Shown: positions 1-6,000, counted from the stretch's first letter. The stretch: DNA of 16,154 nt from Candidatus Iainarchaeum sp. (GCA_030649735.1 JAUSFL010000017.1:1-16154), one strand, 5' to 3'. Made by a program: numbers and translations. Notes: generated from the letters alone by a model not told the origin.

Positions 1-3000
1 ACGCCAATAACCAACCAATGCGTTCAAGTCTGAAGGGTCTGAAGAGTTTCCGAAAGAGTCAAGCGCGTTAATCGTGTAATTGTAGTCTGTTCCAATGTCT
101 GAAACTCCGGTCCAATTCACTTGCAGGGAAGTTGTCGGCAAGGCAGTTGAAGTTACAGAAACTCCTGAAGGAACTCCCGGGGCATTAATGTCAGCGGCAT
201 TAGTGTCGGCGAAAGTGTTAATGTCCATCAATAATGGAGTGATTTTCAAGTTGTCAACAAACCAGACATCATCAACACTGCTATAGCCGTAATTTCCAAA
301 GTATATTTTCTTCAAGCCAGTTGTTGCAGTATCCCAATAAGGGGTTTCTGTGAAGAAAATGTCATTAACGTAAGCTTTGCTCATTTTGTTAGCTTGATCA
401 AACAGTATTTTTACGTGATAGTTTCCGCCAACAGTTAAAAGCTTTCCAACACCCCAAATGCTTCCATTATGAATAAACCAGGTTTCATTGTTTATTGCAG
501 ACCATACTGAATTAGTGCCTGCACTCGCAGTTCCAGTTGAAGCAGAATCACCGGCAAAAAACATGAAGTCCCAATCGTTTGCATTGGCAACATTAAAGTC
601 AAATTCCACAATAGCATTAGTGGTGATTTCATTAGGCAAAGTGTACATTGCATAATCTCTAGCTTCTACAGGCACTGCGCCAGGATGGCCCATTCTCAGC
701 TTGTTTCCTAAAATAGTGTAAGTTGAACCATCAGCAACATCCTTGCTCCAGCCGCCAATAGTAGTAATATCCGCTCCGTCAGTTGCTGTAAACTCTTGCT
801 TTGTTCCATTCACTGGCTTAAATTGCCCATCATTGTTAACACTTCTTTCCAAACCGTACTTTCTTGCCCCAATCTGGTACATTTTGTTAACGTCAGCGCC
901 AGTCAAGGCCCTATTGAAGACCATTAATTCATCAAGGTTTACCCAAGGCGAGCCGTCGCCTAAAAGAATGGCTGAAGAGCCAGCTGTTTTAGTGGCCACA
1001 ATATTCGCGCTTCCTTGATATGCTCCATTGACATAATAAGTGAAAAGCGCGCCGTTCTTTGTTCCAGTAATAAAGTACCATTTGTTCAATTCGAAAGTGC
1101 TACCTTGACCGGTTACACCGCACTGACTACAATATCCAGTATTTCCAGGATCATATCTCCAATGCAATGCTGCCAAGCTAGGGTTCACCCAAATTGAAGG
1201 GCTTCTATCTCCTCCACCCGTTGGGTTTGTTCCAAAGACTCTTCTCCAAGAACCATCGTTGGTTTGAGTGAATTTTATCCAAAACGCAATAGAGTGAACG
1301 TCAGTGTTCAAAACACTAGTGGATGGAGTTGTGACAACTGAAGTTTTTAGGTTTAACGCTTTTCCAATTTTGCCATCAACCCAGGCCGGAGTTCCAGTAA
1401 TTTTTCCATTCAAGTCATCTCCACTGCTGTCCAATGCTTTAGTTCCACTGCCTTCCTCAAACCTCCAATAGACAACCATGCTTGAATCCAAGAATTGAGC
1501 GTATGAAGAATTATCGTCTGAAGCAAGCCAATTCACGTCAGCATGGACTGTGGCTCCAGTGCCATTGGAAACAACATTAAAGCTTGCGGGAACAGTAGGG
1601 CCGGAACGGTCTAAAGTAATGTTAGCGTCTAATTTGACAATGCTGTCGCCGTAATATGCGCTGAAATAAGCCCTTACTTTATACCACAGGCTATTATTGT
1701 CTGTTACTCCCGAGTCTTCAAAGCTTGTAGTGCCTGCTGCAAGAGTTGAAGCAATTGTCGTCCAATTGGCTCCAGCATCAACACTCCTGTAAACGTAATA
1801 GCTTGTTTCTCCAGCGACATCGGCCCAAGTTATTTTAATCCCGCCAAGGCCGGAATTCAAGGCATAAAATGCATTATAGTCGACTGCAGTGACTGCTGGA
1901 GCGCAAATTGTTGAAGAATAACTTGTTTCAACAGAATTATTGTTTCTTGCTTTAATTTGATAACAGTAAGACTTTCTAGGCGTCAAGCCAGTGTTTGAGT
2001 AAGTTCCAGTAGAGACAAGTGGCGAAGTCCAGCCAGAAGCAGCGCCTCCAGGATTGCCTGTTGTTTCATTAATGTAAACTCCAGTCATACTAGCGGCAGG
2101 ATTACCATTCAAATTATAGCCCACATTGCAAGCGCTTGCATCACAAACTACGGAAGTAATGTATGGAATTGCGGCAAGAGTCCAAGTAGAAATTGGACCA
2201 CTATAATCGCTATAATTTCCTGCCGCATCCCTAGATCTAGTATTAAACGAGTAATTAGTGTTTGGCGTCAAGCCAAGCCAAGCATAAGGACTAGCAGAAG
2301 ACATATACTCAGTGATAGTATTGAGGTTTTTAATCCAAAATGTAGACAATCCTGAAGTCACTGTTGTTCCGGAAAGTGCGCTTTTGTTTGCTCTGCGCAG
2401 CAAGTACTCCCTGATCATTTGCGCACGGTTTGTAGTGCTAAAAACATTATCAAAATCTTCAATTCCTAACTGGACAAACCTTCCGCCGCTAATATTAGTC
2501 AATTCATAATCCCCGTACCTGTTGCCTGCAGAATAGTATGAGTAATTTTGAGTGATTGTCCAGGTTGCTGGAAGAGTTGTTGGAATCAAACTACGGTAGC
2601 AACTGTAAGAGCTTACGAATGACGGAATATTGGCGTCAGCCGCTGCCTGTTTCGTGCAAGTGTAAGTTGCACCGTCTAACATGTCTGAAGAGCCGTCAAG
2701 AATAGCCCGCATTCTAGTGCTTGAACCAGCATAAATATTGCCGGCAGAATCTAATGATTCATAAAAAGGGTAATCGCCAGTCCAAATTAAAGTCCTGCCA
2801 TTTTCCAACCATTGCTCTGCCCTTGAAGTATCTGCTGTTCCATCATCCAATGCCTGAAAGTCAGTATCCAAGACTACAATGTAAGCGTTAGGGTTGTTCA
2901 AATTGCTGTTGTACCAGTCAGTAAATTCTGCCTGGCTTGACGCAGTGTAATTGAAGACTTTAAAATCAAAAGGCAGCCATTTTTTCAAGTTGTTTAGAAT

Positions 3001-6000
3001 AACCTGCTGTGAACTCGCGCTAATCCAGTTGATGGCATACTGGTTTGAAACAACCGCAACATTAGGCCTTGTTGAATTTCCAAAATCATCGTAAGAAAAA
3101 GCCAAAAAATTGTAATCAGTGCCATAATCTACTGAATCATTCATATAAGCAACATCAATTTGAGAAGAACTGATTGCTGATAAAGTTACTACTCCATAAG
3201 GAACTGAAGGTACAGTATCATCCGGGGCATAAATGTCAGTATAGCTTGTTGAAGTTGACAATGGCGAAGCCTTAAAGCTTCCAAAGTTTGTTACTGACTG
3301 ATAGCTTCTGACTCCAACTGCTCCAGTAGAATAAGTAGTGTCTGTGAAAGTTCCCTTCAAAGCATCGTCAAAATAGACTTTAAAAACGCTGCCTGTTGCA
3401 ATCACTTTCAAATTGTGCGGTTTTGTCCAGTCCGCAACTATTGCAACGCTTGAGCCAACTTGAGTTCCGCTTCCGGAAACTTCCCTCCAAAAATTCAGGT
3501 TGGCAGAACCGTCAATCCAAACCAAGTAAGAATTATTGAAATTTGCAGTCGACGAGCTTCTTAAAATAATTCCCCAATTTGCGTTTCCTGCGGCAGTCCT
3601 GCTGGCATTAACATCAACAACATAGTCAGTCATTGAAGTATTGCCTGTCATTATGACGCTTCCTGCAGTAATGTCTGACTGCAAGAAAGAACTGCCTAGT
3701 ACAGTCCAAGTCCCGGTTACAACAGTCCATGCTGGATTGCTGGTGTATTGGCCGTCGCTAAAGTCATCAAACACTCCGCCAACAGGAGTCCATGCTAAAG
3801 AAGTGATTGGCTTGCTTTGCTCTAAAGTGTACCATTTTCTGGAAGGCCTGTTATAATAGTCAGCCCGTTCCTGGGCCGAAAGAGTCTTGTTGAAAACAGC
3901 GACTTCATCAACAGAGCCAGTGTATTCTTGGTTAACAGAATTTGTTCTTGCAATGTCCAAATTATTGTCATTGACTACAGTATTCGCTAATACTCCGCCG
4001 CCGCCCCCTTCCCTCACATCAGCATTATTACGGTAAACATACTGGTAGCCACTGCTTGTGAAACCAAGCTCATTATACCAAGTGCCTAAAGTCAAATTGT
4101 TATAGCAGCAGTCTTGAGCATAAGAATTGTTTGATGCCCTAAACTGGTACTTGTAGCAATAACTTCCACAACCGGATTCTGCAACCAGCATGCTGCTAAA
4201 AGCGTCTCCAGCCAATCCGCCGCCAACAGCTTTTGTTACAGGATTTTCCCAATTGCTTCCAGGATAATATGGATAACTTGCTAAATTATCCCAAAATATT
4301 AGGCTTAAATCCCCAGTAGTGTCCATGGATGAATTGTCTGCGACAGTCACGTAATTGCTTGTGCTGTCTGAATTTAATGCAGTCCCAAGCTTTCCGGCCT
4401 TCAAGGCTTTTCCAACATAAAACCCGTCATTTGCGTTTCCACTGCTGTCTAAAGCCCTTAAAGAATTGTCGCTTCCTTCAGCATCAAGCTGGTAAACTTC
4501 AAACTCTTGAACGCTCAAGCGCCAGCCAGTATCATCAGCAACGCTTGTGGCATAAAGTCGCACATACCTTGCAAAAGCCGGAGAAAACCTCACATCTTTG
4601 GTGGAATTGCCATCAATTCCAGAATATACTGTGACCCAAGTTGAGGCATCATTTGAAACTTGAATGCTGTAATTGTCAGTGAGAGAGCAAGCATAAGGAG
4701 AACCGCCAGCTTCGCTTATTTTCACTCTTCTTATTGTTTGAGAACTGCCCAAGTCAACGTAAATCCAGTCATTTTCTCCTCCATTGAAGGATTCTCCACT
4801 GCACCAAAGCGTTGAAGTCGAACCGTCAGTTGCAAAAGACTGTACTGGATCTGAAGGATAAGAAGCACCACAATCTGTAGTGCCTAAGCAGCAGCTTCTA
4901 GCACCTGTTGCAGTGTTTTTAAGGCAGTAATAATCGCTGTAAGTTGCTGAAGCTTTTGTCGTTGCTGTTTTTCCTCTCGCAAGATTTGTGTTGTATTCTT
5001 CAAACCTCCAGTAGCCTTTCAAGTTAGTGCCTAAAAAGTCTGCATAGCTTGTTTCGTCAGTGCTTGCAGTCCAACTCAAGCCTGCATAAGTGCCATAGTT
5101 AGTGGCAGCTAAATTTCCAGGAAGTGAAGGCGCAGTGCGGTCTTGGGTTATAATTGATTTCATGCCTGAATCAATATACCCGGCGCTTCCTAAAGTCCTG
5201 ACTTTGTAAGAGTAAGTATTGTTTGACAACGTTGTCAAGTCATTGTAAAAAATAGTGTTTGCAGCCAGAGTTCCAGAAACATTTATCCAATTGACTCCAT
5301 CCCCGGCTCTCCAGACCTGATAGCCTGTCTCGTCAGTGGCGTCAGTCCAGCTTACTTTCACGCCCCCATTCTTAGAATCTAAAGGAATCAAAGTGTTAGA
5401 GTCTAAAGTAATAGTGCTTGGAGTGCTTGAAACATAAGTGACGCTTAAAGTTGGAGAATAACCAGCGCCGTTATCAACCTGATACCAGCCAGTCCAATAA
5501 CTTGATCCTTCAGTTTGGTATTTTATTCCAACATTAAAATAATTTGAGGAAAGCTGATTGTACAAGTCAGTGTCTGCTGTTGTTCCAAGGTCTACGTAAT
5601 TATAGCCACTGTTCCAGCCAGTAGTGGTAGCGTACAAGGTTCCGCTTGCAATTTGGGAAGAAAGTGTAGAATAAGTTCCTGAACAATTATTGTTAGTGTT
5701 TGGAAGCCTTCTGGCTTCAATATTTCCTAAAGCTCCACTATAAGAATAATAGTACAGTTTTAGTTGAACATTACTTATTGGTGAATTGTCAGGAATTGCA
5801 GTAGTGTTAAAGTTTGTAAAAGTGCGGTAATAGGTAGTACCGCTGTTTCCAGCATACATTGTAGTGATGCTATTTCTACAGTAATAAGGCGAAAACATGA
5901 TGTCAACCATGCCGTACATTGTGGTTGTTATTGTTGTTGGAGCTGCAAGAGTGCACCCGGTTGTCGAATAATAGAATGAGTTATTGATGGTTATGCTGTT

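Follow-up and report, generated by a model that had tools for sequence, protein, structure and literature searches.

A giant open reading frame (ORF) lies on the minus strand of the window, our name for the initial 16,154 bases of contig C18 in a Candidatus Iainarchaeum sp. genome (GCA_030649735.1, JAUSFL010000017.1:1-16154). It spans 7683..1, encodes 2561 residues in a single open frame and exits the contig start before a stop codon, leaving its 3' end open. We consider it probable that this is a multi-lectin, adhesin-like surface protein of a DPANN archaeon. Its repeating unit appears to combine an ordinary FN3 domain (F0) with two interleaved FN3 domains (FN3-1 and FN3-2), whole folded domains being carried as cargo in the loops of FN3-1.

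The protein holds two such units, each interrupted at three places, here called slots 1 to 3. A reading made from the DNA alone (the sequence-only reading) had proposed a 3531-nt period, and the positions of two related motifs bear it out: DRTAP lies at residue 848 (nt 5142) and DRSGP at residue 2025 (nt 1611), 1177 residues apart. Self-BLAST of the protein yielded four colinear matches between units 1 and 2: 755-799 with 1929-1974 (E 1e-7), 802-896 with 1977-2077 (41.6% identity, E 2e-17), 1258-1290 with 2250-2281 (E 0.005) and 1502-1540 with 2513-2550 (E 0.001). Every motif quoted in the sequence-only reading is present in the translation of the ORF, and the coordinates it assigned to the slots (3780-3270, ~805-240 and 3060-2390) match within about 10 residues. 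It had further placed a laminin-G (LamG) domain in slot 1 of both units and two dissimilar domains in slot 2. Both placements hold: Laminin_G_3 (PF13385) passes its cut-off over two stretches (75.5 bits versus 27.6), and at E<1e-3 BLAST detects nothing in common between the slot-2 domains. The LamG of unit 1 additionally hosts a discoidin domain (PF00754, 65.7 bits versus 28.2; PF22633, 68.2 bits versus 27.8). Laminin_G_3 and F5_F8_type_C were the only families reported by Pfam for the whole protein.

A paralogue in the same genome (C41:6211-15600, 3130 residues) contains two scaffold copies in which the conserved segments are contiguous, with nothing between them. Two related genomes have further uninterrupted full copies, three in G096 and two in G098. 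We built a scaffold hidden Markov model (HMM) from these seven copies, leaving the window sequence out, and found that it matches the window protein in ordered, colinear pieces. In unit 1 these are residues 753-881 (hmm 10-138, independent E-value (iE) 9e-25), a weak piece at 1445-1546 (iE 0.03) and 1767-1852 (hmm 222-310, iE 1e-13); in unit 2 they are 1928-2065 (iE 2e-26) and 2486-2556 (iE 2e-10). Deletion of the slots in silico and splicing of the pieces produced one end-to-end match per unit (unit 1, hmm 14-310, 125.6 bits; unit 2, hmm 14-222, 133.3 bits). A separate profile for the short C-C' segment, likewise built without the window sequence, finds the unit 2 piece at 14.6 bits, versus a best score of 5.2 in 200 shuffles. 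A scan of 215 genomes of the phylum gave matches at E <= 1e-5 in 20 of them, mostly over the ordinary FN3 only. Homologue searches returned only discoidin- and FN3-level matches for unit 1 and three fragments for the uninterrupted scaffold, and a related-locus search with a 3-row alignment gave four loci, the only full match being a duplicate of G098.

We then turn to the fold of the uninterrupted paralogue module (315 residues, 9-row alignment), for which AlphaFold2 (AF2) gave a mean predicted local distance difference test (pLDDT) score of 84.6 and a predicted template modeling (pTM) score of 0.62 (five models, 75.5-84.6). Topology was read from the aligned ranges of solved FN3 domains on the model, not from coordinates. 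F0 is an ordinary FN3 (17-108). It is followed by FN3-1 strands A (121-125), B (128-132), C (147-153), C' (160-166) and E (170-173), then by the FN3-2 hairpin with strands A' (189-194) and B' (197-201) at pLDDT >=90. FN3-1 resumes with strand F (210-219), a bridge (225-227) and strand G (231-235), and FN3-2 with five strands within 239-296. Single solved FN3 domains fit the model over 112..236-239 with 91-95 residues aligned, root-mean-square deviation (rmsd) 1.9-2.1 and Z 11.8-12.3 (5z06_B, Z 12.3, rmsd 2.0, 91 aligned; 6ygn_B, Z 12.0, rmsd 2.1, 95 aligned; 3uto_A, Z 11.8, rmsd 1.9, 92 aligned). Different single FN3 chains (8oq9_A, 4n5u_A, 7u01_A and others) fit 177-181..297-302 with 85-98 residues aligned (rmsd 1.5-2.7), and two-FN3 tandems fit 9/10..236/237 with 174-182 aligned. 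A seven-strand FN3 sandwich (ABE / C'CFG) was found for both FN3-1 and FN3-2, on the paralogue model only (Z 11.8-12.8). Because a full FN3 of 90-95 residues fits each range and the ranges (112..239 and 177..302) overlap by about 60 residues, the predicted model supports an interleaved order A-B-C-C'-E, A'-B', F-G, C''..G'', with the A'B' hairpin lying in the EF loop of FN3-1. The interleaving of two FN3 domains suspected in the sequence-only reading is thereby reproduced by the uninterrupted copies and their predicted module.

Alignments anchored on F0 place the window inserts after paralogue residues 139-147, 163-166 and 230, in agreement with the three fixed insertion points that had been anticipated. 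This supports assigning the putative insert sites to the BC, C'E (=DE) and FG loops of FN3-1, that is, between strands B/C, C'/E and F/G. In an AF2 model of window residues 753-1860, computed from a 33-row alignment that was checked column by column, all scaffold strands of unit 1 lie at the expected places (pLDDT 72-91), though 400, 173 and 220 residues intervene.

Unit 1 opens with the intact F0 (residues 753-847, nt 5143..5427; this and all following features of the giant ORF are on the minus strand), which is matched by the scaffold HMM and modeled as seven strands with pLDDT 84-96. FN3-1 strands A and B come next (residues 848-884, 5032..5142; HMM and alignment; model 104-111 and 114-120, pLDDT ~80). 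Slot 1, in the BC loop (3838..5031), was assigned from Pfam, alignment and fold search to a LamG whose first strand, GYWRFEE, is parted from the rest by an F5/8 type C (discoidin, NedA-like) domain with its core at residues 947-1056 (4516..4845). In the fold search, the LamG at model 317/321..527 matched AbnA domain 4 (Z 19.1, 185 aligned, rmsd 2.4). Tetanus-toxin Hc lectin-like matches span 127/128..527/530, with 197-205 residues aligned versus ~185 for 317..527. Since these matches take in the GYWRFEE strand before discoidin, and the LamG alignment has a gap of ~175 columns inside LamG in unit 1 only, discoidin is nested in LamG, which is itself nested in FN3-1. A cysteine-rich stretch (residues ~885-946, 4846-5031), with AF2 pLDDT <50 and without aligned homologues, separates the discoidin core from the first strand of LamG.

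Strands C and C' of unit 1 (residues 1283-1303, 3775..3837; pLDDT 81-87) were placed by alignment and were detected by no profile. Slot 2, in the C'E loop (residues ~1304-1476, 3256..3774), holds a ConA-like/CBM66-like beta-sandwich, with model 549/555..722 matching 4b1m_C (Z 18.1, 157 of 161 aligned, rmsd 2.4). It scores 19.2 bits against 3keto-disac_hyd (PF06439), below the 26.8 cut-off, and the homologous slot-2 domain of G060 passes that cut-off at 44.7 bits. Residues 1477-1546 (3046..3255; alignment, pLDDT 69-89) comprise strand E of FN3-1 (four residues, SYTD; pLDDT 80-87), A'B' of FN3-2 (76-86), and strand F of FN3-1 (89) with the start of the FG loop. Slot 3, in the FG loop (2386..3045), is filled by a domain of 220 residues without assigned family (AF2 pLDDT <50); the alpha/beta fold given to it in the sequence-only reading is putative. 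We found no credible Pfam family for it, no match among PDB sequences (best E 0.09) and no homologue elsewhere in the phylum (214 further genomes); from the ESM Atlas came no more than leads, a xanthan-lyase fragment and DUF4960. The metagenome protein P0048 (2522 residues) has a non-LamG domain of ~250 residues in its slot 1, and a resemblance between the two was rejected, as BLAST found no similarity. The unit closes with strand G of FN3-1 (pLDDT 72) and strands C to G of FN3-2 (81-91), together residues 1767-1852 (2128..2385). A cysteine-containing FN3-like spacer follows (residues 1853-1927, 1903..2127; Pfam, BLAST and HMM). Such a spacer stands after each interleaved pair in the window protein, the C41 paralogue and P0156, and FN3-type profiles match it in their C-terminal half only.

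In unit 2, self-BLAST and the HMM identify F0 (residues 1928-2024, 1612..1902), and the HMM and alignment identify strands A and B (2025-2065, 1489..1611). Slot 1 (865..1488) holds a LamG recognized by Pfam (Laminin_G_3, best stretch 2114-2265). Strands C and C' (2274-2293, 805..864) are those found by the C-C' profile, and slot 2 (235..804) contains a beta-sandwich of another sequence class than that of unit 1. Strand E, A'B', strand F and the FG-loop start occupy residues 2484-2552 (28..234; HMM and alignment). Slot 3 (1..27), cut by the contig end, retains just the opening residues of a LamG-type start (LVGYWR, from the translation); a full LamG occupies this slot in unit 1 of G084.

We compared slot contents across 24 units from 12 proteins (the window protein, the C41 paralogue, G060, G084, G096, G098, G107, P0042, P0043, P0067, P0156 and P0190), leaving out the third unit of P0067 and P0048, whose pieces were not all resolved. 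Seven of the 24 units are empty at all three slots, and the 17 interrupted ones come from 10 proteins. Slot 1 is filled in 16 of these 17 (empty in G098 unit 1), slot 2 in 15 (all but P0156 and G107 unit 2) and slot 3 in 12 of the 14 that have the region (empty in G098 unit 2 and P0156). Every slot thus has filled and empty examples, and the Pfam family varies in slots 1 and 3. Slot 1 may contain one LamG, two LamGs (G107), ~330 extra residues plus a LamG (G060), LamG plus discoidin (window unit 1) or an unannotated domain of 250-269 residues (unit 2 of G084 and of G098). Slot 2 contents form at least four sequence clusters of sandwiches of ~160-195 residues, and slot 3 holds LamG (G084 unit 1), CBM_4_9 (G107 unit 2, E 3e-10) or domains without annotation. 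P0042, the nearest homologue (51% identity over 525 residues, E 2e-135), has the slot-1 and slot-2 cargo of window unit 2 (35% and 58.5% identity). Its slot 3 carries non-LamG cargo that opens with GFEDDF and has no Pfam family, at the place where the window protein starts a LamG. The prediction that homologues would show interchangeable cargo at fixed junctions is thus met by cargo that differs between them and by slots either filled or empty. From these alignments, slot cargo appears to have been gained, lost or replaced in evolution, the scaffold strands having stayed colinear.

In the architecture that we propose, the repeat unit would comprise an ordinary FN3 (F0), a display FN3 (FN3-1) and a second FN3 (FN3-2), which would thread its A'B' hairpin through the FN3-1 EF loop. 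The BC, C'E (=DE) and FG loops of FN3-1 would each take a whole folded domain. From standard FN3 topology, up to three carbohydrate-binding-type domains (LamG, discoidin and the CBM66-like sandwich; CBM_4_9 in relatives) would then cluster at one pole of the scaffold, and FN3-2 would be tied to the pole opposite the cargo. The chain would cross between FN3-1 and FN3-2 three times (E to A', B' to F and G to C'') instead of once, which suggests that the pair forms a rigid joint.

The cargo would bind glycans, and the protein may attach the cell to a host, a role deduced from domain types and lineage only. The carbohydrate-binding-type cargo, an N-terminal hydrophobic segment, the lack of a catalytic domain in Pfam searches of the 2561 residues present (the C-terminus is off the contig) and a precedent in Nanohaloarchaeota together point to a multivalent glycan-binding adhesin. 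The same architecture could serve instead as a nutritional, cellulosome-like scaffold that captures or degrades polysaccharides, a function we regard as rather unlikely. It would suit the CBM- and lectin-type folds of the cargo (CBM66-like, CBM_4_9 in G107 and NedA-type discoidin) and the weak alpha/beta-hydrolase and peptidase_S9 matches of neighboring ORFs. Two of these ORFs (10202-14788 and 14878-16152) also have a ~50-residue C-terminal repeat that may be dockerin-like. The nutritional role fits less well with the absence of any catalytic domain from the 2561 residues present, and giant LamG surface proteins of cultivated DPANN archaea have been proposed as host-interaction factors (PMC6642349). 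The present data do not tell adhesion and polysaccharide capture apart.

It is improbable, in our view, that the protein is a string of tandem domains in which the short conserved segments are linkers or edge strands of the cargo. These segments are contiguous in seven uninterrupted units, for which a confident model shows two whole FN3 folds, their order and spacing are kept in the 17 interrupted units whatever the cargo, and each slot is also found empty with the flanking strands joined directly (G098 unit 1, G107 unit 2, P0156). Moreover, the C-C' piece of unit 2 stands well clear of the shuffled sequences. A number of observations nonetheless weigh against the interleaved reading, and several would suit tandem domains. 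The unit 1 model is of moderate confidence only (mean pLDDT 64.1), with two stretches below 50: model 125-216, which is the first LamG strand together with the cysteine-rich beginning of the discoidin region, and slot 3 at 790-1017. Its fold search has no FN3 among the best 50 matches, all LamG- or ConA-like; because lectin folds fill these matches, the search cannot show FN3 reassembly. Several L-type lectin matches begin at model 530-536, a range covering the C-C' hairpin, and for that reason the hairpin may, in this model, lie against the slot-2 sandwich. The C-C' piece of unit 1 (23 residues) adds nothing to profile scores, as swapping it for an arbitrary stretch left the spliced HMM score unchanged, and the C-C' profile did not find it (-2.7 bits). 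No piece of the window protein reaches the 25-bit cut-off of Pfam fn3 (PF00041; best 23.4 bits, residues ~1802-1833), which FN3-2 of the paralogue passes at 58.9 bits. With fn3 just below cut-off and only LamG and discoidin seen by Pfam, linear domain annotation would miss the scaffold. Among 20 cargo segments of relatives, Pfam names 9 and leaves 11 without a family. A split-chain complex prediction for unit 2 (2025-2483 versus 2484-2561) weighs on neither side, with a score of 0.01 against a mark of 0.32 and the partner's own fold uncertain. Finally, the interleaving was read from overlapping ranges in a predicted model of the paralogue, not of the window protein. We infer that the split strands would reassemble into one FN3 sandwich in the window's own protein.

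We likewise give little credence to the interleaving being an AF2 artifact of a shallow alignment, with FN3-1 an incomplete five-stranded domain and the hairpin part of an enlarged FN3-2. The alignment has 9 rows only, and Pfam fn3 matches FN3-2 across the hairpin, taking it as an insertion. No solved chain matches both domains rigidly among the best 50 matches of 48,161 PDB representatives, which leaves the arrangement without template support (the nearest two-domain matches among them are 3mtr_B, with 150 residues aligned at rmsd 4.9, and 5fn8_B, with 125 at rmsd 5.3). However, all five models agree, the hairpin is confidently predicted and has a YxYxV/L-type F-strand motif like that of F0, and a complete FN3 fits 112..236-239 with 91-95 residues at rmsd ~2.0, which a five-strand remnant of ~60 residues could not.

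Outside the units, the N-terminal 750 residues of the window protein are common to P0067, P0042, G084 and G098, except for residues 449-602. An N-terminal hydrophobic stretch, seen in the translation, and a conserved region make up residues 23-448 (6340..7617; E 1e-50 to 2e-9 to these four proteins). Residues 449-602 (5878..6339) match DUF4082 (PF13313, 32 bits versus a cut-off of 28.4). P0042 and G084 run unbroken across this site, and DUF4082 occurs only in the window protein among the proteins compared, so by alignment it is a further, fourth nested insertion, lying in the conserved N-terminal region.

The genome (G000) measures 1.28 Mb in 51 contigs and is 92.7% complete. Its EF-2 is closest to sequences labeled Candidatus Diapherotrites archaeon (70-75% identity), and it has 34 frames of at least 1000 residues. 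Three of these giant frames, of 2573-2795 residues each, stand in a row on contig C47. The giant gene's immediate upstream neighbor, an ORF of 151 residues on the same strand (7818-8273, minus), carries a class III signal peptide of archaeal pilin type. Given the EF-2 relatives, this neighbor and the 34 giant frames, the organism is a DPANN-type archaeon rich in giant proteins. As the window is the contig start, no left flank of the giant ORF is retrievable. BLAST of its product against the 33 other ORFs of at least 1000 residues in the genome matched nothing beyond the C41 paralogue and a single LamG in C46, and no contig end continuing the gene was identified. Further upstream, an AAA_14 + DUF4143 ATPase (8886-10115, minus) sits between the surface-protein genes. 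The ORFs at 10202-14788 (1528 residues) and 14878-16152 (a fragment of 424 residues), both on the minus strand, have a hydrolase-like middle in common, and their C-terminal repeats are nearly identical, with a cysteine at the end. The longer one also has an fn3 match and weak Disaggr_repeat and Peptidase_S9 matches.

Nested adhesins and interdigitated Ig pairs are already known. In RrgA, GBS104 and Mfa5, a binding domain sits as an insert between strand B and strand C of a stalk domain with an Ig-like fold, and the RrgA-type stalk domain consists of two separated sequence segments, projecting the binding domain outward (PMC7835359). Slot 1 of the window protein is likewise in a B-C loop. However, those adhesins use CnaA/CnaB IgG-like hosts with isopeptide bonds and one vWF-A cargo per host domain, whereas the window protein repeats a unit in which the host is an FN3, interleaved with a second one, and lectin-type cargo occupies three loops. 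Pfam searches of the window protein returned no vWA or Cna family, the features of the RrgA/GBS104/Mfa5 class. In the CD19 double-Ig and the MXRA8 pair, two Ig-like domains of one chain interdigitate rather than stand in tandem (PMC8470474), a likeness to the interleaved FN3-1 and FN3-2. CD19 pairs half-domains (p1+p4, p2+p3) and MXRA8 swaps an AB substructure, whereas in the window-type scaffold only the A'B' hairpin of domain 2 would lie inside the EF loop of domain 1. Neither CD19 nor MXRA8 entries were among the matches listed in the fold searches of the module model.

BC, DE and FG are the CDR-like 'north' loops of FN3 (complementarity-determining region, CDR), and AB, CD and EF the 'south' loops (PMC7140400). 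Monobodies and Adnectins, which are engineered from 10Fn3, make these three north loops of a single FN3 their display surface (PMC7140400). They carry short peptide loops there, whereas the window protein, a natural one, would carry whole domains of 170-400 residues. It is conceivable, and we advance it tentatively as a doubtful reading, that the protein is a natural counterpart of the monobody: three complete, exchangeable recognition domains would sit on CDR-like loops with a second FN3 locked opposite by strand threading, repeats of the unit would be what determines specificity in DPANN symbiont adhesins, and exchange at the slots would set the partner cell surface recognized.

SPEARE proteins of Nanohaloarchaeota are giant, mostly extracytoplasmic, LamG-bearing and expressed, with a proposed role in host interaction (PMC6642349). 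The window protein resembles them as a very long DPANN surface protein with laminin-G and other adhesion domains. SPEARE proteins are, however, defined by serine-protease and type III restriction-enzyme (endonuclease) domains, neither of which was found in the 2561 residues present, the C-terminal part being off the contig. A nested FN3 chassis is not described for them in the available part of that report (PMC6642349). Nested insertions are common in general, and a survey of 2.7 million domains, which catalogues nests of the A1-B1-C-B2-A2 kind, states that inserts are without exception smaller than the domains hosting them, in its words consistently so (PMC13114784). The LamG in FN3 and discoidin in LamG would form such a three-level nest, but with inserts 2-4 times larger than the FN3 host of ~90 residues, contrary to the survey's rule. 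The available text of the survey has no occurrence of 'fibronectin' or 'immunoglobulin', and its supplements, which list host families, could contain FN3 hosts (PMC13114784). Searches of open-access full text turned up no account of an FN3 that carries three inserted domains, nor of such an interleaved FN3 pair.

If the architecture is true, an FN3 of ~90 residues tolerates three simultaneous inserts, each 2-4 times its size, at the very loops that engineers diversify. The filled and empty natural versions of each slot would then be ready-made design rules for multi-domain display, and a rigid two-FN3 connector would be on offer. Linear domain annotation misreads such proteins, as the Pfam report on the window protein illustrates. 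For DPANN biology, the slots of such giant, mostly unannotated surface proteins would be concrete places to probe for what sets specificity towards a host or a substrate.

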